Below are positions 676 through 64,000 of a stretch of 64,000 nt of DNA, piece after piece. Origin of the DNA: a virus (taxonomy: Duplodnaviria; Caudoviricetes); the IMG/VR virus record IMGVR_UViG_3300020037_002148, positions 1-64,000 of that record. One strand, 5' to 3'. The stretch's first letter is position 1, and every line of letters starts with the position of its first letter. The notes below the pieces were generated by a model. It saw only the letters and a list, made by a program, of their open reading frames with translations, did no database searches and was not told the DNA's origin. The position numbers and the translations under genes are program-made.

Positions 676-1023
676 GGGGATAACAGGAATTGACAGCATT
701 AATAAGAAAAATAATCAGCAGAGCATTGTATAATTTGGCTCTTTAATCTTAAAATACACAACTTTTTTAAATGACAATATGTCAAAATCTGCAAGAATTG
801 CAGAAGGTGGTCGTGTTATAAACATGATCTTTAACCAAGAGTTAGTAGCAGCTTAGTAACAGAATAGCTACAATCCTATTTGCAAGTAATAGGTGGTGGA
901 ATTTGGACAAGTGAAATTCTTGTTCAACCCTTTAGATATTTAGTTGTGAAATTCATCTAAGAAGCTGTATAAATTATTTTTTGGAAGATTGTCTGGACAG
1001 GGGTTCAAATCCCCTTATCTCCA
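676..1023 (+). ncRNA. ssrA: tmRNA (no encoded CCA)
   Basis: Acceptor stem GGGGATA(676-682)/TATCTCC(1016-1022) with G3-U70 and discriminator A1023. 5' GAATTGAC motif, T-arm AGGGG-TTCAAAT-CCCCT, and an internal tag frame ending ...QELVAA-TAG-TAA (854-859). Confidence 0.93.
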
Positions 1024-1056
1024 CTACATATCTAACTTCATTAAAAACAACTAATT

Positions 1057-40451: not shown

Positions 40452-43400
40452 TTATTTATTCTGTTGCATTTGAAGAGATTTAATACTTTCTCCTAAATCC
40501 ATTTTAGAAGGTGAAGCACCAAATAACTTTAAGAATTTAGCCATTATTTTACTATCACCTTTTTCATAGTAACCTGTAGCTTTCTCATATCTTTCTACAT
40601 CTCCAGTAAGTGCTAAATTGAAAAAATCTTGTGGAACTTGTTCAAGAAAAGATACAGTTTTAGTTACATAACCATACATTACTGAAGGAGTTGATAAATT
40701 TCTTTTAATATCTCCTATATCCGGTAATCCTTTTCTATTAATATCTCCTAATTGACCAAAAGCAGATAACTCTGCATTTAATCTCATCATAGGTGCTAAT
40801 AACATAGCTATTCTAGCTTTTTCATCATCATCTCCAGCAGCTTTCATCATACCTGTTAATCCTGCAATTAAAATACTTGTCATTAATATAAAAGCCATAT
40901 CCATAGCATTTCTTCTAAGATTTGCTAATTCTTTAGGTGTAAGAGTAGAAGTATCTGTTTTTAAAACACTATTTAATATCCCGTCTTTTGAAGTATGGAA
41001 GCCAAATCCTACTTTAACCATCTCTTTAAATTCTTCTCTCATTAATCTGTAGAAAGTTCTATTATAACCTTCAGTAATATCCATTACTCTGAAATTCTTT
41101 CTTTCTCCTCTCCATCTTTTAGCAATTGAATTAGCCATAAAATTTCTCATAAATTTAATTACTCTGCTATACCAAAATTTATTAGCCATTGGTGCAGTCA
41201 TTTTAGAATAGTTACCGTGAGTACTTTGCAGTACATAATTTAATTTATTTTTAAATGTATTTGAAAGTAACCCATTTGAAGTTGTAGAACCTAATTGAGA
41301 TAAAATATTATTTTTAATTTCTATTTTTTTAGTTTCAGGATTCCAAGCATTTTTATATACTTCATATAAATTAGTATCACTACCATGCTCATCTTTTAAT
41401 TTAGTTGTCTTCATTAATGCTAACATCATAGTTAATTGTACATTATGTTCTCCTAAACTTTGTAAAAACATTAAAGGTGAAGAATTCATTAAAATTCTAG
41501 CTTTAGATTTAGAAATCTTTCTACCAAATTTATCTTTAAATTCACCCATAAAAGGATCTACAATTTCTATTAATTGACCTATAAAAGTTTCAGGTATAGG
41601 ATCTACAACATCTTTAATAAAATCATTAGAGAAAGAAGCATATTCTTTATTAGCCCATGCAAGTGTAGCTTTATCAACAAATTGTTGAGCATGAGATTCA
41701 ATCATATTTTGAGCACCTCCTTGTAAATAATTGGCTACATTTGAAAATAATCCAAAAGGTAATCCCATACTTGTATTTGCAATTACTCCTGAAAGAGTAT
41801 CTACAAGAGAATGTAAATCAGTTTCTCCTAAAACAGGTATGTTAACCATTGATTTTTCTCTACTAATTCCATAAATAGCATGATCTATATAATATTTAAA
41901 AAATGCTTCAACATTACTTTCAGATGAATCTACATAAGCATCTAATCCTGGAAGATTTAATTCTTCTGCAAATTTCTTTAATACTAATTTACCTTTAGAA
42001 TCTGTTTTCTTAGGTTTGTTTGTAGCAATAGCAATTTGAAGAGCTGACATTAAAGGTTCTAATTTAACTCTTGATTCATATTGTAGAGCTTCTTTAGCAA
42101 ATAATAATGTAGATTGAGCTAAATCTAAAGAAACATCTTCCAATGCTATTTTAGATGTGTACATAGTAGGTATAACTTTTAAACCACTTTCAGTAGTTTC
42201 ACCATACTGCATTTTTGTATCACTTCCTACTTCATTAAATGCTCTATCCCATTTATCTTTAACAAATTTACCAATTCCATCCTGTGATTTTTCTAATCCT
42301 ACTTTATTATTATAAGGTAAAATATACTTTTCTTCTTGAGATAATTGTTGAGGAAGCAATTGTCTGGATTTATGTGCTTGAGATATAAGCATATTATAGA
42401 AATTTAATTTTGGTATATCACCTCCATTTTGAATAGCAGTCCATTTATCATTAATGAATTTATCATTAGGTTCTCTTAATTCTTTACCTTCTTTAGTATC
42501 ATTTCTAACTTCAATTATATTACCATATTTATCCATTTTAAAAGAAGCAATTTTCCAATCATTAAATTGTTTTTCAGAAATCAATTTATTTTCAACATCT
42601 TTCATTTTATCTTTTATAACAGATAAATAACCTTGTTTGATTACAACACCATTAATTACTTCATCTTTAGCTGCAATAGGTTTTGTATTTTGAGAATACC
42701 AATCATTTAATTTCTTCCAATATTCATTTCTATCTTCAATGTTTTTAATTGATTCTTGAAATTCTTTTTTCTCTTTATTGAATTTAGTAATATCTGTTTT
42801 TTGAACATAAGCTACTTCTTGTCTTTCAATAAATTCTTTTGAAACTGGATCAAAATAACCAAGTGTAATAATTTCAAATAATCCATCATTAAATTCTTTA
42901 GGATTATTTCTAATACCTTCTCTTGTTCTTGCATATTCTTTATATACAGGTAAAAATTCTTCCTGCAACTCCATTAAATGCTGACGTAACTCATTGTCAT
43001 TATTATCAATAATTTGACTTGCTCCTGCTACAAATACATTAGGAGCATCTTGAGGAGCCATTAACCACATTTGAGCAAAAGAAATATCTTCATCCATACC
43101 ATCTTTTAATTGACGAGTAATATCTTCTTCAGTAGTAGTTAATGTTCTTGTTTTAATCTTGATTTTATCTTTTAGATTTCCAATTTTCTTTTCTAGTTTT
43201 TTACTCTTATTATTACCAACCCCACCTGTCTTTTTATTTATCTCCAATAACTCTATTTGAGCTTCATTTATTTCATTCTGAATTTTATCTATTTTCTTTT
43301 GGAAGTCTTTAGTAAATTCTTCATTATCTGTAAATTGTTTAAAATTCTCAACCATAAAAGGAGTAATAGTTCTTTTATATTGATTATCAATATGATCTAA

Positions 43401-45395
43401 CACTTTCTTTATATCACCTAATTTAGAAACTAAACTTTCAGGATCATTATTATCTTTACCTACTTCATCATAAAATTCTATTAACTCGTTCATTAAAGGT
43501 CTAAAGTGATTTACTTTCTTCTTATAACTCAATAAATTCTGAATAATTTCTCTATTATCAGTTATTTTTTTATTTTTAATTTCATTTACTAAACCATTAA
43601 TTTTAGATTGTAAATTAAAATCTCCAGTAATAAATGTTTTATGTAATTCAGTTACATATAAAGCTAATCTACTTGCAGCTACAAAATCTTTATTTTCAAT
43701 AACTCTTAACATTCTCTTTAAATCCTTAATACTATAAGTAGTATTTTCAGTTGAAATATGTTCTAATAAAGCAATTTCATTTTTAATTGCTAATACAACA
43801 TTACTTACATTTTGTTCAAATTGAGTTTCATAAGTGTTAGCAATTCTAAAATTATGTTTTGAATCTATATTAGTTTTATTTAAATAAGTAGTATTTAATT
43901 GTAGAGGAAAATGTTTTTCAACATTAATTTTACTAACTTCATTTCCAGTGGTTTCTACAATATGAATAGGTAATATTTGTATAGGTTTAGAATCTTTAAG
44001 TGGAATACCTCTGGATTCTAATATACCTGCATACATAGATAATTGAGCTTCATGTTTTTCTTTTTTAGAACCTCTATCATTTTGAAATGCTTTATCATAT
44101 CTATTAGTATATTCTTCTCCACTTTCACCTACTTTAGTATAATCTTCAAAATATCTACCATTAAATTTAGTTGGATTAACACTTGATTTTAAATCTATAA
44201 TTTCACTATTACCAAATTCATCTACTAATATTAAATCAGCAGTACCTCCAATTTTCTCTCCTTCATTATAAAGAAATACTTGTGGAATTGCTACTTTAGT
44301 AGGATTTTGTTTTAAAAAGTTATTAAATTCATAAATAAGTTTATTAGTGATTTCTTCATTTATCTGACTTTCTTCACCTCTTTTATTTCTAAGTTTTTCT
44401 ATAGTGGATAAAACATTTTCTAATTGATTTTCATCAAATCTAAATTGAATTACACTTCTAAGAATGTCATCAATTTGATTCCCCCAAATTCTATTATTTT
44501 CATATTTAGATTCATCAAATTTATCATCAAATTTAAATCTTTCATCTTTACCTATAATAGTAGAAGCTCTATCTAATACAGTATTATTTTTAAGTATATA
44601 ATTCTTTTCTGTAGTACCACTTAAATCACTTGACATAGACATTAACTTCTCTGCATTTCTCTTTTGTTCAAATGTAGTATTAATATGTTCAAATTGTTGA
44701 GTGACAAGTGTATTTACTTCTTCACTCCAATCATTTTCTTTAAAAGTATCATCTTTAATTCCATTTTGTTTTCCAAGATTATTGAAGAAATTAAGACTAT
44801 CTGTAATATCATTTGATTGAATTTTTTGAAAAAGTAAATCATCTGGAAATAAATCTTGATCTTGTACATATCCCCCAAATGAATTAGTTTGTCTTTTAAC
44901 CTCACTTCTAATTAAACTTCTTGGATATTTTTTAGCTACTTCTTTTAAAGCTGCTATTTTAGTGTTAATTAAAGCTTGTTCTGTGTATTCTTTTTGAGGA
45001 GTGTTAGGAGTTAAACTTGGGTAAGTTCCATTTTTAATATTTAATTCTGCTTGAATATTCTTAATACTTTCTTTTAAATTATCTTTAGTTTGAGTTGGTT
45101 GAATACCATTAGTTTCTATTTTAAATAAATTGATAGCTTCTTCTAAAGTAATTTCTTTTATTTTATCAGTTAAATTCTTTAAATAAAACTTACCGTTTTC
45201 TTTAAAAACTTCTCCTTGTACAAATCTTTTTTCTCTACCAGAATACGCTGTAAATTTATCAGGTAAATTTTTATTTAAATTAATTTCAGGTTTAACTAAC
45301 TTACCATATTTATCTATTCCCTTTTCTTTGTATAGAATAGACTGTAACTCTTCTTTAGAGTACCAATTATTATTATATTTATATTTACAAGCCAT
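40452..45395 (-). CDS. Large virion ejection/cargo protein with a PD-(D/E)xK nuclease-like domain and a C-terminal TM region
   Basis: GTADLILVD...IIDLKS...QLSMY motif near 44040-44250; hydrophobic helix near the C-terminus. Confidence 0.75.
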   Translation of the reverse strand: MACKYKYNNNWYSKEELQSILYKEKGIDKYGKLVKPEINLNKNLPDKFTAYSGREKRFVQGEVFKENGKFYLKNLTDKIKEITLEEAINLFKIETNGIQPTQTKDNLKESIKNIQAELNIKNGTYPSLTPNTPQKEYTEQALINTKIAALKEVAKKYPRSLIRSEVKRQTNSFGGYVQDQDLFPDDLLFQKIQSNDITDSLNFFNNLGKQNGIKDDTFKENDWSEEVNTLVTQQFEHINTTFEQKRNAEKLMSMSSDLSGTTEKNYILKNNTVLDRASTIIGKDERFKFDDKFDESKYENNRIWGNQIDDILRSVIQFRFDENQLENVLSTIEKLRNKRGEESQINEEITNKLIYEFNNFLKQNPTKVAIPQVFLYNEGEKIGGTADLILVDEFGNSEIIDLKSSVNPTKFNGRYFEDYTKVGESGEEYTNRYDKAFQNDRGSKKEKHEAQLSMYAGILESRGIPLKDSKPIQILPIHIVETTGNEVSKINVEKHFPLQLNTTYLNKTNIDSKHNFRIANTYETQFEQNVSNVVLAIKNEIALLEHISTENTTYSIKDLKRMLRVIENKDFVAASRLALYVTELHKTFITGDFNLQSKINGLVNEIKNKKITDNREIIQNLLSYKKKVNHFRPLMNELIEFYDEVGKDNNDPESLVSKLGDIKKVLDHIDNQYKRTITPFMVENFKQFTDNEEFTKDFQKKIDKIQNEINEAQIELLEINKKTGGVGNNKSKKLEKKIGNLKDKIKIKTRTLTTTEEDITRQLKDGMDEDISFAQMWLMAPQDAPNVFVAGASQIIDNNDNELRQHLMELQEEFLPVYKEYARTREGIRNNPKEFNDGLFEIITLGYFDPVSKEFIERQEVAYVQKTDITKFNKEKKEFQESIKNIEDRNEYWKKLNDWYSQNTKPIAAKDEVINGVVIKQGYLSVIKDKMKDVENKLISEKQFNDWKIASFKMDKYGNIIEVRNDTKEGKELREPNDKFINDKWTAIQNGGDIPKLNFYNMLISQAHKSRQLLPQQLSQEEKYILPYNNKVGLEKSQDGIGKFVKDKWDRAFNEVGSDTKMQYGETTESGLKVIPTMYTSKIALEDVSLDLAQSTLLFAKEALQYESRVKLEPLMSALQIAIATNKPKKTDSKGKLVLKKFAEELNLPGLDAYVDSSESNVEAFFKYYIDHAIYGISREKSMVNIPVLGETDLHSLVDTLSGVIANTSMGLPFGLFSNVANYLQGGAQNMIESHAQQFVDKATLAWANKEYASFSNDFIKDVVDPIPETFIGQLIEIVDPFMGEFKDKFGRKISKSKARILMNSSPLMFLQSLGEHNVQLTMMLALMKTTKLKDEHGSDTNLYEVYKNAWNPETKKIEIKNNILSQLGSTTSNGLLSNTFKNKLNYVLQSTHGNYSKMTAPMANKFWYSRVIKFMRNFMANSIAKRWRGERKNFRVMDITEGYNRTFYRLMREEFKEMVKVGFGFHTSKDGILNSVLKTDTSTLTPKELANLRRNAMDMAFILMTSILIAGLTGMMKAAGDDDEKARIAMLLAPMMRLNAELSAFGQLGDINRKGLPDIGDIKRNLSTPSVMYGYVTKTVSFLEQVPQDFFNLALTGDVERYEKATGYYEKGDSKIMAKFLKLFGASPSKMDLGESIKSLQMQQNK

Positions 45396-45396
45396 A

Positions 45397-46137
45397 TTAA
45401 TTATTATTTATTTTGTCCCAAAGATAAACTCTTGATTTTTTATACAATATATTTTCTATTTGCTTACCTAACTTATATTTTTCTCTTATCTCTTTAACAG
45501 ATAAACCATTAATTCTATCTTTTATAGCTTCTATTAATAATTCATCAGAATATTTAGTTAAATGTCTTGACTGTATTTTTGTATTATTAATTAAATGCTT
45601 CTCTTCATCAGGAATAATATAATCAGAAACATCCACCCAAGTTCTATGAGATTTTATACTTTGTATTGTGTTTTGCGCTACATTAAACATTTTAGATATT
45701 TCTAAAGCAGTTTTATTGTAAGCAATTAATTTTTTAATTTCAGTTACCTGGTCTTTATTTAGTATATATCTTCCATTTTCAACTCTATTTTCCTTATCTT
45801 CTTTATGTTTTTTAGAAATAGATTTACTTAAATTTTCAAATCCTTTTGTTTTTATATATTTACCTGCTTTTTTACATATATTAAAAGGAGGGTTTAAATT
45901 GTCTAAAAACCATTGTTCTAATTTTACTAAATATATATCTGGGCAAATTGCTATTATTTCAAATTTAAAATTATTAATTCCATGCTTATTATAACTATTT
46001 TGTAATTTAATTGAAGAATGTTTGTTTCTTTTTAATTGATTAAAATGTTGCCATTCTCTGTTTTTTAAATTACAAGAACTACCAATATAAAATTTATTAT
46101 TTACAAGATTAGTTATTTTATATATACCGCTTAACAT
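45397..46137 (-). CDS. Free-standing GIY-YIG homing endonuclease
   Basis: SGIYKITNLVNNKFYIGSS; C-terminal HTH-like repeats. Confidence 0.9.
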   Translation of the reverse strand: MLSGIYKITNLVNNKFYIGSSCNLKNREWQHFNQLKRNKHSSIKLQNSYNKHGINNFKFEIIAICPDIYLVKLEQWFLDNLNPPFNICKKAGKYIKTKGFENLSKSISKKHKEDKENRVENGRYILNKDQVTEIKKLIAYNKTALEISKMFNVAQNTIQSIKSHRTWVDVSDYIIPDEEKHLINNTKIQSRHLTKYSDELLIEAIKDRINGLSVKEIREKYKLGKQIENILYKKSRVYLWDKINNN

Positions 46138-48164
46138 TCTTTTTCTAATTTATTTATAAAATTGTTAACTTCTTCTAATCTTTTTTGTTGTAAAATTTTA
46201 TTTACATTTTCAATAATTTTCTTAGTTTGGTATGGAACATCATCATCTGCTTCAAGTTCAAAGTTACTAAAATTTAATGATATAGCTAACTCGTTGTGGT
46301 GGTGTGATAAATCATCTACAATAGAAGCAAGATTTGGTTGAACAGTAGTTACATTACTTAAAGAAGGATATTTAGTATAACTAACTCCAAGTAATTCAGA
46401 CTTTTTATCCTTATTTACTTTTTCGGAAGCATCCCAAACACTGCCACTATATACATCTGTGTTAGCAGCCCATAATATATCATTAGATTGTGGATATAGT
46501 TTAAACTTAATCTTACCACCACCACCTTCTAAATGTCCTATTTGTTTATCAATAGGTTTAGTATATGCAGATATTGCAAATTTACCACCAGCTTTTTCAT
46601 TATCTTCTATATGAGATAATAAATTTTGCATCATAAGATTTACATCAAAATTAGAATAAGCTCCTACAACAGAACTAAACTCTTGACCTCTTGAATATAT
46701 TTCTTCAGGATTATATTGAATGTTATTTACTCTTTTCCATTCTTCTATAATTTCTTTAGATTGTTCATATTCTTTGTTTTTTTCTATGAAGCCTTCTACA
46801 CCTGCTTTATTTATATAATTATCAGATAAATTAGAATTCCATAAAGTAAGAATATCATCATCCAACATTATTCTATTAGTATCTTCAATATACCATTTTC
46901 CAGCTTTTTTATTATAAGTAGTATTGTCAAACTCATCAACAAATTTATTTACAGGTATTTCACTTGCTTTTTCTACTTTTTTTCTTATATTTAAACTAAC
47001 ATTATCTAAATCAACATCTTCAACACTTTTAGTTAATTGACCAATGTGTTTACTTGCTTCTTGATAAGTTTTAAATGTTTGATTATCAGGAGTGGTATAT
47101 TCTACTTCATATCCAGGTAATATAAGTTTACTATTAGAATAGGCTAATAAATCAGCTAAATCATTAATAGTCATATTATCAGGTAATTTATCTATTTCTA
47201 CTTCTTTTTGAAATAAAATATCTTTCATAAAAGATTTTATTTCTTTTAATAATCTTTTAAGTAAAGATATTAGTTTACCATCTTTAACAGCATCAAGTTT
47301 TTCAGCAGTCATCATTCCTAGGAGTTCTACAATGGCTTCTTCTTGTTGTTCTTCTAAAGTATATTCTGTTTTATTAGGATTTTCTTTTTGATATTTTTTA
47401 GCCTTTTGTTCATCATTAAATGTTTTACCATCTATTTTATACACATATTCTTGTACCCCAAAAACATCATCTTCTAAAGTAATTTCTTTTAGATTTTCTT
47501 TATATTGATAATCCCTCTTAACCCTATCTAATACTTCTTTACCTTTACCATATTCAAGTTCTTTGAGTAGGTTTTGGTATAATTCAGCTTTAGGGTTAGT
47601 TTGAATAGTTTTATCATATCTGTATATAATAGTTCCATCAGGAGCATCATAAGCTGCTAAATATCTTATTCCATTTTTTTCTATAACTTGATTTTTCTCA
47701 ATAATTTTATCAGCATCTTTTTCAGTAAGATTTTCTTCTATTTGAAACTTACTACCATTTTTAATAGCTCTAATAATAGGATGTCCTAATATTTCATGTA
47801 TTGGAGTGTCTAATGTTGCATAAGCTAAATTAATATAAGCTACATTATTTTCAATTTTACCTTTATAATCTTTACTTCTATCAGATTCTATTTTATAAGG
47901 AATACCTATTCTATCAGACATTCTAGCTGCTAAATCTCTAATAGTTTTTTCTGAAGCTATTTGTCCTTCATTGGATTGAGTTTGTTTTTGAAAAGAAGTA
48001 TTTCTACCTATTTGATTTTCCATCCATAATTTAGAAGGAAATTCATCCAATCTATTATTACTTTCTTGCCATAGAGATACTATACCACCTATATATTCAG
48101 GTGTTTTACTAAACTCTTTAGCCCAATCTTGTATTTGTTGATTACTTATATTTGTACAATGCAT
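46131..48164 (-). CDS. Virion/cargo protein with a zincin-like metallopeptidase motif
   Basis: HEILGH (47781-47798) and downstream EEAIVE. Confidence 0.7.
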   Translation of the reverse strand: MHCTNISNQQIQDWAKEFSKTPEYIGGIVSLWQESNNRLDEFPSKLWMENQIGRNTSFQKQTQSNEGQIASEKTIRDLAARMSDRIGIPYKIESDRSKDYKGKIENNVAYINLAYATLDTPIHEILGHPIIRAIKNGSKFQIEENLTEKDADKIIEKNQVIEKNGIRYLAAYDAPDGTIIYRYDKTIQTNPKAELYQNLLKELEYGKGKEVLDRVKRDYQYKENLKEITLEDDVFGVQEYVYKIDGKTFNDEQKAKKYQKENPNKTEYTLEEQQEEAIVELLGMMTAEKLDAVKDGKLISLLKRLLKEIKSFMKDILFQKEVEIDKLPDNMTINDLADLLAYSNSKLILPGYEVEYTTPDNQTFKTYQEASKHIGQLTKSVEDVDLDNVSLNIRKKVEKASEIPVNKFVDEFDNTTYNKKAGKWYIEDTNRIMLDDDILTLWNSNLSDNYINKAGVEGFIEKNKEYEQSKEIIEEWKRVNNIQYNPEEIYSRGQEFSSVVGAYSNFDVNLMMQNLLSHIEDNEKAGGKFAISAYTKPIDKQIGHLEGGGGKIKFKLYPQSNDILWAANTDVYSGSVWDASEKVNKDKKSELLGVSYTKYPSLSNVTTVQPNLASIVDDLSHHHNELAISLNFSNFELEADDDVPYQTKKIIENVNKILQQKRLEEVNNFINKLEKEC

Positions 48165-48165
48165 A

Positions 48166-51100
48166 TTATGATTTTAATGAATAACATTTTTTGGTTTTAT
48201 CTTCTATTTCTTGTTTACTTTTCCCTGCTTTAACCATAAAGTTATTAGCAACTCTTTCTAATTCCTCAATAGTTCTATTTTTAGTGCCTTCTAAAGTTAC
48301 TTTAGTTATTGCTGAATATTGATTAATTAAATTAATAAAATTTAATCTTACTTCAGTTTCATCTTTAGCTTTTTCCTTAGTTTTATTAAACATATTCATT
48401 TTCACTTTCTCTGTTTGTTCAGGTGAAAGTACCATGTCTAATTGATCTTTAATACTATTAGTTAAAGAAGATATTTCACCACTACCTAATATAATATGTT
48501 GATTATATAATGCTTTAGTTCCTTCAATATAACCATTTTCAAATTGATTAGCAATAGCTTTAGCTATATTTACTAATCTTTCTCTACCATTTTTATATGT
48601 TTTTAATTTAGCATCATTATTAATAATCTCATAAATAGTATTATTAAATAAATCACCATAATAAATATCACCTTTTAAAGATTCTTTACTTGAGTTACTA
48701 AGTTCTAGCACTTTACCTTCAGGTGATATTTGAAAATTAATCCAACTACCATCAACTTGAATACTATCTTGTACAGCAGTTAATTTTAAAGGTATTCTAG
48801 CACTATTTTTACCAGATAAATAAGTTATTATAGGAAATCCTATTTTACTATAAGGAATAATTTTATCACCTGATTTATATGTTTTAGCTATTTTTTTAAA
48901 TATAACTATTTCATCTCTTAAAATAAATTTTTTATTTTCTTTTTTAATTTGAGATTTTTGTTCAGGTTTCATTCCTTTAGTAATTCTTGCAAATTGATTT
49001 ACTACTAAAGTGTTATTTTTACTATCAAAGAATATAGGGTAATTATCTTCCAATACTAACTCCTCTTTTTCATTAGTATCACTTTCATTATCATTTACAA
49101 AATCCTCACTTTCAATTTTATTATCTTTAATCCATTTTTCATCAATTACTTTTCTTAGAACATCAATCTTTTGAGATTTTAAATCAAAGTAATTATTTTG
49201 ATTTAATCCAAATTTAATTATAAAGTCTAAATTCAATTCTTCTTTAGACATTCCAAAAGTTTCTATATATTCTTTACTGGAACTCATTTTACTGAATAAT
49301 TCTTGAACTTTATCTAAAGCATTTGAAGTTTCAGTAAATAATATAGGATCAATAGCTTTTATAAAAGATTGATTTTGAAACATTAAACCATCTTTAACTA
49401 CAAGATATTTAAACATATCCTTAGCAAATTTAGTTTTAAGAGTATTAATTCTTCTAATTTCAGGATCTCTTTCTAAGATATTATTATTTTCTGCAAAATA
49501 TAAATCATTAAAACTCGAAATTATACTTGAAATAATATCTGGATTTTTTAAAGCTCTTGAATTAGCTCCAAAACCATGAAATCTATAACCAAATAAAGTA
49601 TTTTTATTTGCTTGTTTTTTAAGATAATCAATATTTTTTATTTCAAGAAATTCTAAGAAATCATTTTTAATTCCATTTTTATAATTATATTCAATTATTT
49701 GTAAGAAATTAGTTTGTAATTCATTATTCTCTTTAGTGTTATCTTTAGCAATTTCTTCTAAAGGAGTTAATAAAAATTCTTCAATTTTAGGAAGTTTATC
49801 ATCAGTATTTTTAACACTTTCAGCATAAGCCATCACTGTTAAATATGATAAATAATGTTTTCTTAAATTACTTTGAAAATCAACATTACCTGCTTTATAA
49901 TCTTTAAATAAAGTAAGTATATCTTCTCTTGTTTTTTTAGCTGTTGGAGTTTGAGATATAAAATACTTTTCACTTAACTTAGTTAAAGCTAAAGCTGTTT
50001 TAATAGATTGTTTTAAGAATTTATCTTTTTCAAAAATATCACCAACACCATTTCCAATTATCTTAGTAGTATCTTTATAATTTTTATAAAATTTATCAGT
50101 AGGTTTATCATTTTTTACAATATCTAAACCATTTTCACTAACACTCCATCCTAAATTATTTAAAGCTGTAATAAACTTTTCAGATTCTGCAAATGTGCTT
50201 TTAAAACCTTTAATTAATTGTAATAAATTTTGCAGATTACTAAATACAGTAGATGCTTTTTTATAATGGAAATATTCATTAGAGATTCTTTTTAAAATAG
50301 CTTTTTGATTACTTACAGGTTTTTCTTCTTGAGAAAATAAATCTTTTTGTTCTTGATAGTCACCAAATCTTTCTTTAAATTGTTGTTCATTAGAAATATC
50401 TTGACCACTTTCATTTCTAAAAGTCCATCCTTTAGGAGCTAATATTAGTGTAGGTAAATTTAATTTAAATCCTGCTTTAGCTCCTGCTTCATCTAAACCT
50501 GTTTGTCCTCCAGTTCTAATTCTTTCTATTGGATTTTCTAAATCAGGTGAACTTAAAACAGCTTGTAATAATTCATATACATAATCATCTAATTGCTCTT
50601 GAGTATATTTACCTTTCATAGTATATATACCATTACCAGCAATGTTTAAAGTCTTAGCTTTAGTTTCATTTAATTGTTCTACAATATTATCAACTATTTC
50701 TGGAGTTACTTCTAAAGAGTCTTTAATATCAATAGGAATATATTTTTTACTTTGTCCTTCAACAGAAGATTTAGTTAATCTTTCACCAGCACTTGTAAAA
50801 TCTACTGCAATAGCTATTGTAGCATCAGCAGAAGCGTTTTTAATAGTTCTTTGTTTATAACCTGTAGATTGTTCTTCTAAAAAAGTAATTCCTTTAGAAA
50901 ATTCTTCTTTAATTACTTCTTTATTTTTCAAAGAATCCAATAAAGTTTGATAATTTAAATCTCCTTCAAATTCAGATTCACCTTCTAATTGAAATATACT
51001 TTCTACTTTCTTCTGTAATTCTCTATTTCCTTTACTATCATCATAATCTTGTTTAGATTGAATAGTTTTATTATATGATTGAGATAATTCAGAAATCTTT

Positions 51101-54100
51101 TTAACAATTGGAGATTTCATTAATAACATTACATTATTAAAATTATGACCTACACCAATCATAGCTAAAGCTACAGGAAGTGTTTCAGTAGTTAAATTAA
51201 ACAGATTAGCCATTTGCTCTTTAGCATTATCAGTCATTGCTGCTAATAATGTAGCTATACTATCTTGAACTCTTTGAGCATCTTTTTCATCTACTAATTT
51301 ATTATTTTCATCTCTTGAATAATTAACAAAAGGTTCTAAATTAATCTTTTCACCTACTTTTCTTTCAATAGTTACTTTATTTTTAAATAATATTCCAAAG
51401 AGATTATTAAACAAAGCTACTGGTCCAATATTAGCAGCTCCTGTTGAAATAGATATGTCAGCAAGAGTTTTAGAAAGCATATCATGTACTCCATATCCTA
51501 AATCTTTATTAATTAATCCTTCTCCTTCAAGAGTTTCAATTAAATCTTTAAATAATTTAAGACTTGTAGGTGTATTAGTTATTTTATTATTACCATCATT
51601 ATTAATTAGCTTTCTTTCTAATTCTAATAACATATTATTAGTTTCTCCTTTTGTTAAAGGTTCTATACTATCTATATTACCAGATTGATAAGCAATATAA
51701 TTACTTTCAATTACATCTTTATTTTTATAAGTCCATTCTCCTTTATTGAATATAATTTTATTAATAATGAAAGATTGTTCTAATAAAGTTAATTCTAAAG
51801 ATTTAATTTCATCAATGATACCTAATAATTCAGAAGTAGCTGGTTTTACTAATTGTTCTCTAGTAAATACATTTGGTATTTCTTTAACTTTTCTTAAACT
51901 ATTTTCAGCAATAGTTTTTTCTCTGGTTAATTCAATTAATTCTTTACTATTAGTTTTTAAATCATTAAATGTAGAAGATATTTTTTTATTATCATAAGCA
52001 TCAGATAAATATTCATTATATGCTTGTTCTTTAGCTTCTTCCAAAGTTGATTGAAATAAATAACTACCATATATTCCTGTTTTTTTATTTAAAACATTTG
52101 TATAAGTTTGATTTACTCTTACATATAAAGCATCAATATCAAAGTCAGCTCCAGATAATTCAACAATTTCATTTGGTAACATAATTGCATTACCATAACT
52201 ATCAGGTAGTATATCTACTATTTTACAATTAATCATAGAGTGTTTATCTTCTGTTGGAATTCTGACTCCAGATATATATAAAAATTCTTGAGGTATTTCA
52301 CCTTTGTGAAATTGATCTGCTGTAAATCCAAATTTCTTTAAGAATCTTTCACTTACTACAATTTCAGAATAATATTCATGTTTTTCTTTATCATAAACAT
52401 CATGTCTTAATCTTTGAGAAACAATATTAGCTCCTCTTGGTCTATTATCTCCTTTAGATTGTCTAGTAGTGAATGTTTTAATTACATTACCTTCATTATC
52501 AATTTCTCTCTCTAATTCACTACCAACACTTGACATTAAAGATAATTTAGAACCAGCAACTTTTTGTTTAAGTGTACCACCACTAACAAAAGAAAGGAAC
52601 ATTGATTGAAATTTAGTTTCAATTGCAGGATTATTTAAATTGTATTTAGGTTTGCTACTATTTCCTTGTTGAAATAATTCTAGTTGTTGAGGATCAGCAG
52701 ATGATTTTTCAATTGAATCTATAAAACTTTTTAAAAGTAAATCCCATTCAGCATCTCCATTTTCATCTAACATCTCTTTTTTAAGAGCTTTAAATCCTTT
52801 ATCAGTTCTTTCAGCTAATTGTTTTTCATAAACATTTAATGCAGTACCAATATTTATTTCTTTATTTTTAAAATAAATTAAAGTTTCATTTATTTGTTCA
52901 GTAGAAATTAATCTTAAAAATTGAGTAGGATGTGTTATTTGTTTTTTAACTCCATCAGTTTTTTGTTGATCAATTAAACTTGCATTTGGTACAGAAATTG
53001 ATGAAATAACTTTTTTACCATTTTCATTTTTATATAAAAAAGGTTGCCCATTACTAATTTCATGTATATTGTATTTACTTCTTTTCCAAGCACTATCATA
53101 TACTGCAATAGCATTATTTAATTCCAGTTCATTTAATAAATTATGTTTATATTCTTTACCAGGGATAGCTTCAAATAAATTCTGATATTTTTTAGTTAAA
53201 TAAGTAATATAAGCATTATCAGAAGGTGATGCTTGTAATTTCAAATCAAATAGTTCTTTATGTATTAGAAGAGCTTCTTTAAGATTTTCTTTTGAATAAT
53301 TTTTTAATCTTGAAGTTGTTTCTCTTAAAATTGGAGAAATTGAAGTTTTTAAATACCAATCTAAACCAAAACCTTGTGTTTTATTAGGTTGGTGTTGTGC
53401 ATTATTATCATAGAGGTAATCATAATCTTCTTTAGTTATTTTTTGTAATTCACCTTCACTATTTATATAATAATTTAAGCCACTATCAATTCCTTGATAT
53501 ATTTCTTTAATTCTATTATCAATTGATTTAGAATTTAGAATAACTGATAAATGATGAAAAGGAGTATTGAATGTTTGAGCATCTGTAGTATCAATTTTAT
53601 TTACTACTTCAGATCTAATAGGGATTATATTTGTAACTCCACTACCATAATTAGAACCACTACCAATCATACCTTTAGCTCTTTTTACAAAGTCATTAGC
53701 GTTTTTACTAGATGTAGCATTGTCTCCATACATTAAAGAATTAATACCATAAGACATTAAATAGTCATTTAAAAAAGCATTTTTTAAAGCATTTTTATCT
53801 AATTGATTTCCAGAAATAAAAGATTTTGGTAATAAGTTAACTTCACCCTCTTTAAGAAGACCTTTATCTTCTAATAATTTAATATATTCGTCAACTTGAA
53901 AATCAATAAAATTAGATAATCTTTGTTTAATTTCTTCTTCAGAAAGATCTTTTTCATTTAATTTAGTATTTTTATTAGCAAAGTTAAATAACTTTAATCC
54001 TTTTGGTATTAAACTATTTAAATTAATTTCTTTTTTTATTGTAGAACCATCCTCTTGTTTTTCATTATAATATAATTCTTCTTTAGATAGGTTTACAACA

Positions 54101-57100
54101 TTATTATTATTATCAATGTCTAAATAGAAATAAGTTCCATCACTATGTGTAAATATTTTAACTGATTTATTACCATTAGTGCCTTCTACACCAATATTTT
54201 GTAACATATAATGAAATCCTTCATTATATCCATCTTTCTTAAAACCTAAATAATATTCATCTATTTCACTTTGAACAATTTTAATTCTCTCTACTTCTTG
54301 ATTATATATAGAATATAAGGAATTCAATCCTTTTTCATTAATTTTACCTTTTTCAATAAAATTATTAAAAGGTAATAATACCATTGGTATAGTAGATGCA
54401 CTTTCATATTGAGAAGCTATATAATAAGCATATTTTTGTTTACCTACAACTTTTAAATTATATTTATTATAAGCACTATCAGCTAAAAGACTTAATCTAT
54501 ATAATATTTTAGCAGTAGTATCAGCATTATTATAACTTTTACCATCACTATCAGAAAATAATCCATAATTTTTAGAAGATACATCTACATCTTCACTATC
54601 TTCATACTCAGTTACATTAGTTTCTTCTTGTCTAATACCTCCAGCATAAGCCATAGTTAAAGTGGTAAATAAAGTATCAATATCTACATTATTAAATAGA
54701 GGATTATGATCTAACACTTGTAAAAAATTATCTACTTGATATTCTTCTGTAAAGAAACTATATAAATAATATGTACCATTTTCTTCATTATTTAATACTT
54801 TATCTTTAAATGTTTTAACATCTTTTGTTTCAAGATATTCTTTAATTAATTGAACATTATCTTTATCTTTTAATATATTTAATCTTCTTGAAATATCAGA
54901 AGGTGGTGTAATATCAAATATTCTTTTACCTTCTTGATTATTAAATGAAGATGGAATTATACTTGTATCAAATAAAGCTGTACTTTCAGCTACATCCATT
55001 AATTTACCAACAGCTCCTAATAAAGGTTCTGCTTTTTGAGTGGCAGGGTCTATATCATTATATATAGTGTTAGTTCCAAAACTAATACCTGTAGTTAATG
55101 TTTTTTCAATACCATCTAAAAATTCTAAATTAATAGGTTTTATATCACTTGCTGAAAAATTATTATACCAATTTATTTCTTCATTTGTAAGTAAATTAGT
55201 ATTTCCTGTTTCAAATACAAAGTTTATTAGATTGTATTTAATAAATTGTTCAGGTAATTCAATACCTAAATCAGAAAATGAACTTTTGAAAGTATTCACT
55301 AAAGCAATTACAGCTTCACTTTTTTCTTGTGATTTAAGTGATTTTGTATTTTCTAATAAATCTACATATTTTTGTAAAATATTATCTATATTACTTTTAT
55401 ATAAATTTGCTTTAAAATCAATTTTAGCTTGTTCTAAATTGTCAATTCTTTTAGAATTCCAATTTCTTTCCCATCTACTAAATACTTGTTTACCAACATT
55501 TCTATTATTAGCATTTAACATTCTGGTTACACCTTCTTTAGAAAATAATACATCTTGTAAATAAGTTCTATTTTTTTCAAAATCAGAAGATATAAAACTA
55601 AATGTAGGTGATTTAGTTAATATTTTATAATATAAAGGACTTAATATTTCATATAATTTAGCAAAATCTTCAACATTAATTTCAGGTAATTCAAAACTAT
55701 TATTTTTCTTTAATTCACTATAAATATCTTTATACCATTGATGTGTAAATGCTTTAATTTCAGGAGAAGTATTAGAAACAGAATATAATAATCCTAAATG
55801 TTTATAAGCTGGAGCACCAACTAACATTTTTGTTAAATTAGAATATAAATGATTTCCGTTAATAGCAAAACTATAATTTTTACTTTTATCATTAACTATA
55901 TAATCATCAAATGGTTTTCCAATGCCAAATAAATCAATATTTGTACTCACTGAGGAAATATATTGCTTTACTTTTTTAGATGCTTTATCCCAAGCATGAT
56001 TAATTTCATTTTTACTTTTTTGAACAATTCCTGTATCATTTAATTCATCATCTTCTAAATCATCACTATCATCTAATTGTTCTTGTAAAATAGAAGATTC
56101 ATTTACAAGATTATATAAAGGAAGTCTTTCAAAAACTTCTTGAACTACTATTTCTTGATTTTTTAAATTTCCTAAACTTTTATATACATTTAAATATTTT
56201 GAAGCTGTCTTATTTGCTAAATCATCATCTTTAATAGAATCAATTAAATCAGCAATAACTTCATTATTAGGGTTAAATCTCTCTCTAAATAAATCATAAA
56301 TATCACTAATTTCATCATCAGTAATAATTTTTGATCCTTTATTTTTTAATATTTTAGCAGCTTCATTTGTAATTGTGTTAATGATAGCTTCAGATATTGA
56401 ATAACTTAAATATCCTTTTTTATCTATATATTTACCATTAGTTAATTTAAGTTTATATTCTTGTACTAAAAGTTTATTTACATCAATAGAATTATTGACA
56501 TTTCTAATTACAGGAAATTTCTCTTTAGCATTTTTAAATTTACCTTGATAAATATCTGAGAATAATTGTGTTACAGCTCTTTCATTAGATGTATTATTTT
56601 TATCAAATATCCCTTTTAATAAATTCTTTATTCTTTCAAAGATTCTTCTTAACCATGATTGTGTTACAGATTTTTCAGCTTTCATATACTCCATAAAAGC
56701 ATCTGCCATTTTTTCTTCTAGCCAAAGATTTTTTAATTCTTGTTGAGATAAATTAATTAAATCAGAAGATGATTCTTTTAAGGTTTGTAATTGTTCTTTA
56801 GTTGGTGTGCCATATAAAGATTCAGCACCATTAAGAGTTTTAATAATTCTACCTCTATCAAGCATTAATCTAAATACAGCATGAAAAGCTTCATGATATT
56901 CAAAACCTTTTACAGATTTACCATTTTTAGTAGCAAGATATATAGTTTTTAATTTACCTATAAATCTACCACCTACTTCACCTTTAGTTTTAAGGTTTCC
57001 GAGTATATCAATTAAATCAGTAACTTCAATAGTTCCATTAGGATTATCTTGAGTTTTAATAGGGAGTATTTGAGATAGATTTTTGATTGCAGTATTATAC

Positions 57101-60100
57101 TCAATTAAATCTTGGGTAGATAATTCTAATAATTTATTAGCACCTTCTGTTTCAGCTTCATTTTGAGCATTTGTAACAATTTGTACAAATTCTTCTAAAC
57201 TCAATCCTTTTTCACTAATTTTAGATCTACGATAAACTCTTGAAAGTAAATCTTCTTCTTTTGGTAATTGTTCAAAATTAACACCTAATTCTTCTAATTT
57301 ATCTATATTTGGAGTTTGTTTAACTTCTATTTTAGGTTCTAAAGCAGCTAATTCTGCATCATATTTAGCGTTGATTTTATCTATTTCAGGTTTTAAAAGT
57401 TTTGATAACTCTTCTTTAGAATAACCACCTCTTTCTATAATCCTATTAAGTGTTTGACCTCCTCCCCCAATTTCAGGATTGTTTCCACTGTCATTAGAGT
57501 AAGCTAATTCCATTAACTCTCTTGAAACATATTCATCTACCCCTAAAACTTTTACACTATTTTTAGATGTCTGTTTTTCACTTGTTCCAAACTTTTTTAA
57601 AGCTTCTTGTCTTCTTCTTTTTATATCAGCTTCAATAAGTTGCTTATGAGTTTTGTTTTCAGGATTATCTAATTTTTTACCTTCAAAATAAACATTATCA
57701 CCCTTAACTTCATAATTTGTATTACCTACTTTTCCTTGTGGTAAATCTGCATTTAAGTTTAATTCTATTTCAGATTGAGTAGTAGATGTAGGTTGTTCTT
57801 CTAATGCTTTTAGTTCTGCAGAAGGAGTAGGAGAACTTTCAACTACTTGTATTATTGTTTTAGCTTCTTCTTGAGCTTCTAATTTAACAGTATTTTCATT
57901 AAATAAATCTTCCTGTTCTTTATTTTGTATTTGTTCTTTAGCTTTTTGCTGTTGATTTATTTCTTCTTGTTGTTTTTCATTTCTAAGTCTTATATTTTCT
58001 CTAGTAGAAGTAATTTCTTTTACTTGTGTTCTATCAGGTCTTAAATATAAATTATATCCTAACTTCTTTTTAGTTACAAGATTTTCTAAAGATTGTTGAT
58101 TATTTTTATTTAATAATACATTAGTATAGAATCCGTTTATTGTAGCATTTACGTTAGTTGCTTTTCTAAGTTTACCTAATACTGAATATTGGCTATCTTT
58201 TAAAATTAAAGAAGCAATTTCTTCATTTAATTTATTTTCATTTAAGACTTCATGTCTAAATTTTTTAATTTCTTCAATTTTTTGACCTAAAGTAATTTCT
58301 CCTTTTTCAAATCTTTTATTAATTGGGTCTAATTCTTCTTTACCTTTAGCAAAAGATTTAAAGAAGTTTTGACCATCAAAATAAATTGAAGAAGCTATAG
58401 TAGTTTTCTTCCCATTAATCTCTAATTCAAATGATAATTGCCCTATTTTATCAGAATAAGTAGATATGAAAGGAGTTACTTTAACTTTTTCTGTTTTATT
58501 TAATCCTGTTACAGATAAGAATAAATCAAAATTTTTAATATCTTCTTTAGGGTCTAATTCTTTTTTAGTTTTATCTTTATATTCTTCATAATAAGAACTC
58601 AAACCTTCACTCATAATTTGAAGTGCTGGTAATAATGCTTTTTCATTATTTAAAAAGTTAACTATAAATTCTTCATTATTATCTAATCCTTTTAATTTAG
58701 AAATAGTTTCATTTGAAGTGAAAATAGGTTGAATATATCCATTAGAATTAAATACTAATAAAGAAAATAAACTCCCTTTAGTGCTTATAGCGTTTTCTTT
58801 TTTATATGATACTAAATTTTGGATAGCTTTTCTTTCTTCACTATTTTCTTTATCATCTCTATCTCTCCATAATACAGTACCATCTTCATTTCTTTCTAAT
58901 TTACCATTAATAATATTTACAAAATATAATTTTGAAAATCCCTGACCATCTCCAGTAGATTTACCAAAAATAACTATATTTTTATCTTCACCATTTACTT
59001 TAATAGTTTTAGTAGCAGCTTTAGTTAATACATTATCTGGATCATCAAGAGTGTCTTCTATTCTAGTTTCTATTATATTTCCATCTTTATCTTTATTATC
59101 AGTAAAATTCATCTCTATTTGAGATGAAAAAGAATTAAGATTAATCTGACCATTTGTTAAATTATTAAAATCTTCAAATGATATATCACCTCTTTGAGTG
59201 ATAGTATTCAATTTATTAGAAAAACTATTTAATTCTGTTAAATATTGACCTAACACTTTTCTATCTTCAATAGTAGAAATTAAATCTGAAGGAAATAACA
59301 TTCCTAATACAATCTCTAAATAACCATCTTCTTTTAATTTACTAAAATCAATTGGACTCCATTTATCATTTATTTTAAGATAAATTTGATTTGGCATTTG
59401 GAATCCACCAATAAGTTCTCCATCTACTTTCATTTGAAAGTTAAATGGTTTATTATTACCTCTTACACCACTTAATGAAATTACATTTTGATTATCTTTT
59501 TCTTTTAAATCTGCTACAGCTTGTTCAATAGATTTAGGATTTTCTAAATCTGTTAAAGTAAAAGTAATTCTTTTTCTAAGATCTTTTTCATTTGGATTAT
59601 TAGCAATTGAAGCTAGTTTATTTTCTTGTTGTTCATTATTAAATAAACTAAATAATTCATTTATATTAGAGAAATATGGTTTTTTACCATCTTCTTTCTT
59701 TTGTTTTTCAGCTTCTTTTTTAGTTTGTTGTAATTCTATAATTCTTTCTTTTGCTTTAGCAATTAAAGTATTCACATTAACTTTCAATGTATCATTAACA
59801 GTTTCTTTATATTGTTTTAAATGAGCTACTAAAGCATCAAGTGTATCTAAATCATCTTCTTGATTGATTATTGTACTTACTTTTGAAATATATTCTTTCT
59901 GAGCTTTTACTTGCTCACTATCATCTTCTTTAACTTGTAAATCAACATTATTTTCAATTTCTTTTTCTGTATCTTTATCTATTTCAAGTCCTTGATTATG
60001 TAAAAATGTTTTAGCTTTTTCTTTTAAAAATTTTATTGTAGCAGCTCTTTCATTTCTTTTAACTTCTTTATCGAATTTCTCTCTACCATTTTTAGTATTG

Positions 60101-62645: not shown

Positions 62646-63137
62646 TTATTTAATATAATATTCTACAGTTGCATTTTTATTTGAAGGGTATTTTAAATCT
62701 AATTGTTGTTGAGCATAAGAAGCATTCCCATTACTTTCTTTTAATTTTTGTAAATAAAATTCTGTTTGAGGACCTCCTCTAAAATGTACAAGTTTTTCAA
62801 TCATTGATTTTTGTGAAGGATCTACTTTATATTTAGTTATAATATTTTTAGCTTCACTTTCTAATACATTTGGAGCATACCATTCATTATAAAAACTATC
62901 TTGTAAAACATGATTTTTTAAAAATTGTTGAGGTGTTAAATTGGGATTTCCTGAAAAACTTTTTATTTTATTCCCCCATTCACTCCAGATAAATTGATAT
63001 TTTCCATAAGCATTACCATTCACAGCACCATAACCATTATCAGGTTGCCCTTTACTTTCTAAATTAACAATGTCTTTATCTCTTTGTTTACCCTCAGAAG
63101 TTATTGAAATCTGATTATTGACTGCTGAGGGTTGGTA
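62646..63137 (-). CDS. Lysozyme-like (muramidase) domain, probably expressed as a -1 frameshift extension of the upstream gene
   Basis: Open frame carries IVNLESKG...YGAVN...AYGKYQF; the putative catalytic Glu (63057-59) lies upstream of the track GTG start. Confidence 0.7.
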   Translation of the reverse strand, partial: YQPSAVNNQISITSEGKQRDKDIVNLESKGQPDNGYGAVNGNAYGKYQFIWSEWGNKIKSFSGNPNLTPQQFLKNHVLQDSFYNEWYAPNVLESEAKNIITKYKVDPSQKSMIEKLVHFRGGPQTEFYLQKLKESNGNASYAQQQLDLKYPSNKNATVEYYIK

Positions 63138-63143
63138 AAATTT
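63090..63143 (-). promoter_or_regulatory. Candidate programmed -1 frameshift signal
   Basis: In-frame A_AAT_TTT (63143-63137) followed 4 nt later by the stem ACCCTCAG/CTGAGGGT. Confidence 0.65.
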
Positions 63144-64000
63144 CCAGTAGAAGGTATTATAGGTCTAGTTTCTTTAACTACTCTGTCAAGATACTTATCA
63201 TATATTTGACTTGATACAACTTCACCAAGACTTTGAGACATATTCATAATTTGACTAATTAAAAACTCTTTAGTTCCTTGCTCACCTTTTTGTGCTTTTA
63301 AACTTGCAATAATTTGAGTATCTTTCATTAATCTCTCCATATTTAAAGTAATATTAGTTACTAAACCAATATTATTAGTATGGAAATTAATTCTATTATC
63401 TTTAGTTGATATTCCATTTATATCTGCACTATCATATAACTCTATTAAATAGTCTCCTTTAGAGATACCGTCTACACCTCTATTACCAAAATCTCTTTTA
63501 ATAACAATATCTCCTTGTTCTTTTAATCCTGGATAAGTGTATCTCATATATCCAGCATTATTAGAAAGACCATCATGTATTTTCTTATTCTCCTGAATCA
63601 TAGTTCTACTTTCAACACCTAATACATCATCTGCAATTCTTTCTAAAGAATTATCTCCTGCTATTTTTATACCTACAGTGGTTAACTCATCATTACTAAG
63701 ATCAATATTTTTAGATTTATTTTTTCTACCTAAATCTAAACCACTTACAGTAAGACACGCATAAAGCTCTCCATCAATATTTTGAAAAGTAACTGTTTCT
63801 ACAGATTCTACATTATCTTCTCCAAGTTTCTTTTGTTTTTTTAATCTTTGAGCTTTAAAGTTATCTAATTGTTCTGCTGTTAATTGTTCTCCTGTTCTTA
63901 CATAAAATATATTACCACTACTCCCTTGCTGACTTATTCTTTCATCTAAAGAAGATTTTAATTGAGCTTTATATTTAGCTGCGTCATCAGCAGATTTACC
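63101..64000 (-). CDS. C-terminal part of a large virion/ejection protein (5' end outside the window)
   Basis: Manually checked to stay open upstream of the track ATG 63601 to at least about 63720; continuation to the window edge is assumed. Confidence 0.75.
   Translation of the reverse strand, partial: GKSADDAAKYKAQLKSSLDERISQQGSSGNIFYVRTGEQLTAEQLDNFKAQRLKKQKKLGEDNVESVETVTFQNIDGELYACLTVSGLDLGRKNKSKNIDLSNDELTTVGIKIAGDNSLERIADDVLGVESRTMIQENKKIHDGLSNNAGYMRYTYPGLKEQGDIVIKRDFGNRGVDGISKGDYLIELYDSADINGISTKDNRINFHTNNIGLVTNITLNMERLMKDTQIIASLKAQKGEQGTKEFLISQIMNMSQSLGEVVSSQIYDKYLDRVVKETRPIIPSTGNFTNPQQSIIRFQ

Follow-up and report, generated by a model that had tools for sequence, protein, structure and literature searches.

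We analysed a window of 64,000 nucleotides (nt) from a tailed virus (Caudoviricetes; IMG/VR record IMGVR_UViG_3300020037_002148, positions 1 to 64,000), in which three large proteins of 4791, 677 and 1647 amino acids (aa) are encoded in that order on the minus strand. These proteins, which are related to the RNA-polymerase cargo of crAss-like phages, have cysteine (Cys) almost only at the ends at which one cargo protein faces the next, a pattern that recurs in relatives and suggests a chain of proteins joined head to tail. The C-terminal Cys of a junction is referred to here as the donor and the N-terminal Cys of the following protein as the acceptor. The features concerned are as follows.

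48166–62541, minus strand: first member of the proposed chain, 4791 aa, with Cys3439 and Cys4786 only
52225–52227, minus strand: Cys3439, the single internal Cys of the 4791-aa protein
48184–48186, minus strand: Cys4786, sixth residue from the C-terminus, candidate donor of junction 1
46131–48164, minus strand: 677-aa putative plug-in module with Cys at both ends (Cys3 and Cys677 only)
48030–48164, minus strand: N-terminal clasp domain (about 45 aa) of the 677-aa protein, class B, candidate acceptor of junction 1
48156–48158, minus strand: Cys3 of the 677-aa protein
46134–46136, minus strand: Cys677, last residue of the 677-aa protein, candidate donor of junction 2 (class A)
45397–46137, minus strand: free-standing GIY-YIG homing endonuclease gene, 246 aa, inside junction 2
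40452–45395, minus strand: last member of the proposed chain, 1647 aa, with Cys3 only and no Cys at the C-terminus
45387–45389, minus strand: Cys3 of the 1647-aa protein, class A motif M-A-C-K-Y-x-Y, candidate acceptor of junction 2

The three proteins hold five Cys in 7115 aa of translation (0.07%), compared with a background of 1.45% in the 53 plus-strand genes of the same window. Four of the five sit at ends facing another cargo protein, and the outer ends, namely the N-terminus of the 4791-aa protein and the C-terminus of the 1647-aa protein, have none. A preliminary description of this DNA had reported five Cys in about 7100 aa, four of them at junctions and none at the outer ends, and all of its coordinates were confirmed by translation. 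The chance of finding a Cys in each of the four named 10-residue ends is roughly 2e-9, but the pattern was picked post hoc, so the weight of the argument rests on its test in relatives. Cys3439 was considered as a conserved internal Cys and rejected, as mostly hydrophobic residues stand at this place in 12 relatives. Alternative genetic codes were not needed for the three large proteins.

The 1647-aa protein is similar to gp65 of phage phi14:2 (E = 5e-19) and to gp49 of crAss001 (E = 8e-16). Residues 61–783 of the 4791-aa protein match crAss001 gp47 (2e-21), and a direct match of this protein to phi14:2 gp67 was not found. It also matches phi14:2 gp66 (E = 4e-11), and a profile (A1) made from the region of its DFDID motif, the catalytic motif of the RNA polymerase (residue 3466; 52132–52146, minus strand), matches the gp66 crystal structure PDB 6VR4 (2e-28). 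Given that the gp47 match lies in the first ~2000 residues and the gp50/gp66 match near the DFDID motif, the 4791-aa protein is, as judged by these matches, a fusion of the first two cargo proteins, a gp47/gp67-like part (about residues 1–2035) and a two-barrel virion RNA polymerase (gp50/gp66-like). The internal joint of this fusion has no Cys. A cpYpsA SLOG domain (Pfam PF12694, E = 2e-9) follows the polymerase active site at residues 3889–3970 (window ~50630–50877, minus strand). No solved structure matches the single 1647-aa or 4791-aa sequence, and the 1647-aa protein has no Pfam or PHROGs family of substance.

On this homology, the window genes are counterparts by descent of the virion RNA-polymerase cargo block of Crassvirales (phi14:2 gp67-gp66-gp65). 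The blocks of cultured crass phages (phi14:2 gp67-gp66-gp65, crAss001 gp47-gp50-gp49) are homologous to it, have the same order, are packed in the virion and are sometimes fused (10.1101/2020.03.07.982082; PMC10172136), whereas in the window the first two proteins are fused and the 677-aa module and the endonuclease gene precede the last. Homologues in cultured phages belong to the virion and have to unfold in part on their way through the tail (PMC10172136), and the three giant proteins of the window are probably injected by this phage.

To follow the Cys pattern, we assembled ~140 loci from IMG/VR and metagenomes (numbered with the prefix L) plus eight annotated genomes. Inner and outer ends were assigned by domain content, independently of Cys, by means of home-made profiles and a length rule; clusters of ends were formed at 50% identity across the 300 residues next to each end, and Cys was scored in the terminal 10 residues. 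A Cys was present in all 72 clusters of inner C-termini and in none of the 50 clusters of outer C-termini; at the N-termini, the corresponding figures were 68 of 73 for inner and 2 of 14 for outer ends. The acceptor lies at positions 3–9 from the start and the donor 1–10 residues from the end, and the internal Cys rate in relatives is 0.04%. Thus, the terminal Cys singled out in the preliminary description are conserved. The five inner N-terminal exceptions are within-gene polymerase fragments (L039, L085, L100 and L126) or an early start call (crAss002), and the two outer ones are L077, which is really an inner end with a Cys-ended gene directly upstream, and L072.

The rule can be read residue by residue in the cultured phages. 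In phi14:2, gp67 has Cys1797 of 1797 residues only, gp66 has Cys3 and Cys2179 of 2180 only, and gp65 has Cys3 only. The pattern in crAss001 is Cys2339 of 2341 only for gp47, Cys5 and Cys2404 of 2412 (with one internal Cys) for gp50, and Cys5 only for gp49. p-crAssphage, crAss002, jaberico, cr55_1, IAS and cyanophage Lbo-JY46 also obey it. Chain length among the relatives is two, three or four members; in two-gene systems each protein has one Cys and no protein has both. The rule also bears on gene calls: the start of crAss002 gp33 (L032 13243–25980) is probably at Met33 (M-S-C), and IAS gp055 and gp056 (L033 24992–27505 and 18523–25002) are, by this rule, a single gene interrupted by a stretch of N. 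A separate observation concerns C1-type cargo proteins of Intestiviridae (L031 28141–30714, L032 2548–4221 and L034 852–3125; R-C-G-G in two), which have a lone Cys at most 11 residues from the C-terminus, with no N-terminal Cys in the next protein; this is a different use of Cys.

Where cargo genes are fused, the Cys disappear. In four polyproteins the polymerase and the gp65-like protein form one polypeptide, with no Cys at all in 3998–5622 aa, and one of them (L102) is complete with all three parts. Likewise, when a 677-type module is fused to the last protein there is no Cys at the joint (13 proteins, one with an internal Cys far downstream). Donor and acceptor therefore appear and vanish together with gene splitting and fusion. 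The pair persists when the genes are parted: the gp47 gene of crAss001 is on the opposite strand to gp50 and keeps its Cys pair nonetheless, and the parted genes of IAS likewise keep theirs. The use of TGT and TGC at junction Cys equals the background, and the spacing of the Cys to start and stop codons varies, which places selection on the residue rather than on the DNA.

The peptides around the Cys fall into classes, whose patterns were written by hand after the data had been seen. Class B N-termini, with a motif of about 45 aa that contains Cys-x-Asn, two helices, a Trp and Phe-Pro, were found at ~50 junction N-termini on different protein bodies; Cys is the sole invariant residue of the motif, which has no match among solved structures. 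In most of their partners the C-terminus is an amphipathic stretch that leads into the Cys, and in 48 aligned C-termini the Cys that corresponds to Cys4786 is the only invariant column. Class A N-termini (M-x-C-x-Y-x-Y) pair mostly with ends such as K-K-E-C (5 of 6, by the hand-written patterns). In the window, junction 1 is of class B and junction 2 of class A, where Cys677 ends a predicted helix (residues 645–676). Donor similarity tracks acceptor similarity across junctions (Mantel rho 0.17, null maximum 0.11), and, with two mis-called junctions removed beforehand, also among pairs with unrelated protein bodies (rho 0.11, p 0.001). Charge complementarity across junctions was not found (rho −0.06). 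Complex-prediction scores for the peptides of junction 1 (48-row alignments) were 0.31 and 0.29, with the mark set at 0.32, and are counted neither for nor against pairing.

A bond of this kind is so far known only from an unrelated phage lineage. In the pre-ejectosome of cyanopodophage A4 (A-4L, Saffermanviridae), cryo-electron microscopy revealed a disulfide between Cys1715 of gp27 and Cys5 of gp26, with the C-terminal helix of gp27 sitting in a cleft of gp26; the authors describe the link as stabilising the pentameric core and suggest a chain reaction on ejection (PMC12002296). In the A4 genome, gp27 (1717 aa) lies directly upstream of gp26 and the only Cys of each protein is the bond residue, a signature kept in the four relatives Pf-WMP3, Pf-WMP4, TR020 and CHP58. 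As in the window, these are consecutive ejection genes with a lone Cys near the C-terminus of the upstream product and near the N-terminus of the downstream product. The preliminary description knew of no account of such a mechanism; this link in Saffermanviridae is one. A4 has one link between two proteins, whereas crass chains have one to three links, an RNA polymerase, plug-in modules and interchange with fusion, and the A4 paper mentions neither crass phages nor a terminal rule. The window system works like the A4 link and is not a member of the A4 family. As an aside, the gp28-like peptidases of Saffermanviridae (L147–L150) have a C-terminal CxxC in A-4L, Pf-WMP3, Pf-WMP4 and CHP58, which is absent in TR020.

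Junction 2 of the window is occupied. The GIY-YIG gene fills the entire gap between the 677-aa and 1647-aa genes, and its start codon (ATG) shares bases with the last Cys codon and the stop of the 677-aa gene. Its product has three internal Cys and none at the ends, so it is not a member of the chain; together with the ATG overlap and the lack of any Rfam intron match around the open reading frame (ORF), this indicates that the gene is a free-standing insert. A group I intron joining the 677-aa and 1647-aa genes was rejected, as there is no Rfam intron core and the ORF occupies the whole gap, and so was fusion by an intron or by readthrough, as there is no Rfam match and the gap at junction 1 is only 1 nt. 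The earlier wording that each donor pairs with the "next gene product" hence holds for junction 1 and fails for junction 2, unless the intervening 246-aa gene, which that description left out, is skipped. GIY-YIG-like genes recur inside clasp junctions, mostly of class A, and in many cases the ATG overlaps both the codon of the terminal Cys and the stop (the window, L001, L002, L004, L015, L017, L018, L038, L067 and L145), and the conserved clasp junction may be a homing target of such endonucleases. Small ORFs of 117 aa (L015, L117, L119 and L136) or 164 aa (L125) lie in class B junctions, in gaps of 355–506 nt, and their products resemble ferritin-type four-helix proteins by eye; a part of these in clasp oxidation is conceivable.

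The 677-aa protein has a zincin-like HEILGH at residue 123 with a later EEA, and its C-terminal half shows weak similarity to ADP-ribosyltransferase folds, including ART-PolyVal clusters of the ESM Atlas (score 0.90). A Foldseek search against PDB returned nothing at E 0.001, the best match being the ADP-ribosyltransferase CteC (E = 0.02), and the protein has no Pfam or PHROGs family. The AlphaFold2 model has a mean predicted local distance difference test score of 73.6 and a predicted template modelling score of 0.45, with the N-terminal region poorly modelled. Modules of this type occur as free proteins and as fusions, either with the gp65-like protein or with the polymerase. The free ones, from 199 to >1000 aa, have a Cys at each end; 78 of 119 module homologues have both, and many of the others look fragmentary. 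Internal Cys number 17 in 88,339 aa. The module is a putative mobile effector of polyvalent type.

The neighbouring genes served as a control. Genes upstream of the block have weak matches to crAss001 gp45 (3e-4) and gp44 (2e-4) and a clear one to gp40 (9e-11), and crass-type C1 cargo, muzzle and ring genes were found upstream in the genome; the label crAss-like is based here on the cargo and tail homologues only. A 950-aa gene that is C2-like by position only gave no match. Neither it nor the 1078-aa C1-like gene above it has a terminal Cys, and both stand outside the chain.

63101–64000 (on to G000:65953), minus strand: 3′ part of the upstream 950-aa gene, control
62646–63164, minus strand: open frame without Cys that overlaps the 950-aa gene at its end and resembles a lysozyme by eye
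676–1026, plus strand: tmRNA gene (Rfam RF00023, 49.8 bits)

Taking these results together, we propose, with a probability of about 0.7, that the two ends at each junction dock on each other and are locked by a disulfide, which as a covalent link takes the place of gene fusion, and that the cargo is one head-to-tail chain which stays joined when it is unfolded for ejection. The genes encode the RNA-polymerase cargo, which crAss-like phages pack in the head and inject; a C-terminal peptide ending at the Cys would dock on the small Cys-led N-terminal motif of the next protein, and the two Cys would then form a disulfide, closing each break of the ancestral block. The chain would run 4791 to 677 to 1647, with the polarity of a single polypeptide. 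While the virion is assembled in the reducing cytoplasm, docking would keep the partners together; the disulfide would form after lysis or in the periplasm and persist while the cargo unfolds through the tail. Because such a bond is covalent, it would survive unfolding, so that the cargo would be packed in a fixed ratio and exit as a connected thread. The other Cys would have been purged to avoid mispairing, and cytoplasmic thiols would probably reduce the bond. The block is fused into one polyprotein in some phages (10.1101/2020.03.07.982082), which indicates that a permanent link is tolerated, or cut by a protease, and hence redox release need not be the purpose of the bond. The pairing of C-terminal with N-terminal Cys proposed in the preliminary description is strongly favoured by their conservation, their loss on fusion, their persistence when genes are parted and the A4 precedent. 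Moreover, crAss001 virions contain disulfides, between subunits of the tail proteins (PMC10172136).

Several points weigh against this proposal. No crass structure or mass spectrum that shows the bond was found, and the three cargo proteins are not resolved in the crAss001 structure (PMC10172136). The virion location of the window proteins is taken from their homologues, for which it was shown by mass spectrometry. Oxygen is scarce where gut crassviruses live, and these viruses tolerate more internal Cys. The co-variation of donors and acceptors is weak, and shared descent or joint movement of junction DNA could account for part of it. Both ends are of class A in 16 of the 78 two-ended modules (hand-written patterns), so the clasps are not orthogonal in every case and do not suffice by themselves to set the order or the copy number. 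Finally, blastp and phmmer found no similarity between A4 gp27/gp26 and the crass cargo, and the precedent thus holds by analogy only.

Other explanations have to be considered. The terminal disulfides might not run from neighbour to neighbour, with middle proteins closing on themselves, end proteins forming homodimers, or the ends being pinned to a portal, tail or channel protein. That middle proteins hold both Cys, and that modules with the same class at both ends would permit self-closure or repeats, is in keeping with this idea, as are the inter-subunit disulfides of the crAss001 tail proteins. However, it is unlikely given the two-gene systems with one Cys per protein and none with both, the joint loss of donor and acceptor on fusion, the two upstream cargo-type genes that hold 0 and 1 Cys, neither of them terminal, and the A4 bond, which joins different proteins. 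A shared metal ion, bound as in a zinc clasp by ligands that several copies of the chain supply, is a somewhat weaker candidate. It would require no oxidant and could form in the reducing cytoplasm and the anoxic gut, and gut crassviruses of anaerobes do retain the terminal Cys; yet a second Cys lies near the junction Cys in 0 of 99 junctions and a His within six residues in 20 of 99, which disfavours a metal site, a four-ligand site would require two junctions to meet, and the solved analogue, A4, is a disulfide. Of the "disulfide or metal bridge" originally suggested for the window, the disulfide is therefore favoured, neither Cys having a second Cys or a conserved His nearby.

It is improbable that the Cys serve another thiol chemistry, either ligation into one polypeptide, which would also yield head-to-tail polarity and equivalence with fusion, or a modification that marks the ends for packaging or transport. 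Pfam gives no intein or Hint domain, the positions of the Cys (3–9 from the start, 1–10 from the end) are too variable for known rules of ligation or lipidation, and an end tag would not skip the two outer ends; a split intein with protein trans-splicing was rejected on the missing Hint match and on Cys positions of 3–9 and −1 to −10. The least probable explanation, and a very improbable one, is that the Cys are a by-product of DNA or RNA features (a stop/start overlap, an endonuclease target, an intron remnant) or of chance in Cys-poor ejected proteins. Most of the Cys codons are TGT, one Cys codon is overlapped by the ATG of the endonuclease gene, junctions repeatedly contain GIY-YIG genes, and Cys depletion in ejected proteins is known (PMC11445570). 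Nevertheless, the codon ratio is that of the background and start/stop spacing varies, the rule persists in crAss001 and IAS, where the genes are parted, no Rfam intron is present, and the contrast between inner (72 of 72) and outer (0 of 50) C-termini remains; on the parted genes, these counts and the codon use, we rejected a by-product of DNA or RNA. A disulfide between neighbours is hence the reading that we prefer.

The ejection proteins of Schitoviridae (N4 gp50, DEV gp71-73) are Cys-free, which has been ascribed to the avoidance of periplasmic disulfide catalysts (PMC11445570). They resemble crass cargo in the strong Cys depletion of giant ejected proteins, and differ from it in having no conserved Cys, an unrelated polymerase and no clasp. 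Their reasoning of periplasmic passage explains the purge of internal Cys in crass cargo but not the retained terminal ones. In modular polyketide synthases, giant proteins are joined head to tail by docking domains, short C- and N-terminal peptides of several classes that replace fusion. Since these are non-covalent, lack Cys and have an unrelated function, the likeness to clasps is an analogy only. A word search of 10.1101/2020.03.07.982082 and PMC10172136 found no terminal Cys or inter-protein link in crass cargo, and a description of a clasp or disulfide chain in crassviruses was not found in literature from which subscription papers were mostly missing. New here are the order-wide Cys rule, the multi-link chains that include an RNA polymerase, the plug-in modules and the interchange with fusion.

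A wider reading, which we put forward tentatively and hold to be rather less than even in probability, is that the clasps of crassviruses form a modular code of general use. Whatever domain has a donor and an acceptor at its ends would plug into the injected RNA-polymerase chain, disulfides would carry several thousand residues as one unfolded thread, N- to C-terminus, through tail and envelope, and the reducing cytoplasm would free the polymerase and the effectors. If true, this would be a redox-made polyprotein, and it would offer a ready route for loading foreign proteins for delivery by phages.

In summary, crassviruses are the most abundant gut phages, and a simple Cys rule bears on how their cargo is kept in order. 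The crAss001 structure paper left the ordered packing and ejection of ~5.5 MDa of cargo to packing and unspecified cargo interactions (PMC10172136). The rule names residues, which makes the question of cargo order testable in two cultured phages; it explains the free splitting and fusing of the block and provides an easy way to recognise chain members and wrongly called starts, such as that of crAss002 gp33. The likeness to A4 suggests that the same answer was reached in podophage lineages that are not related.

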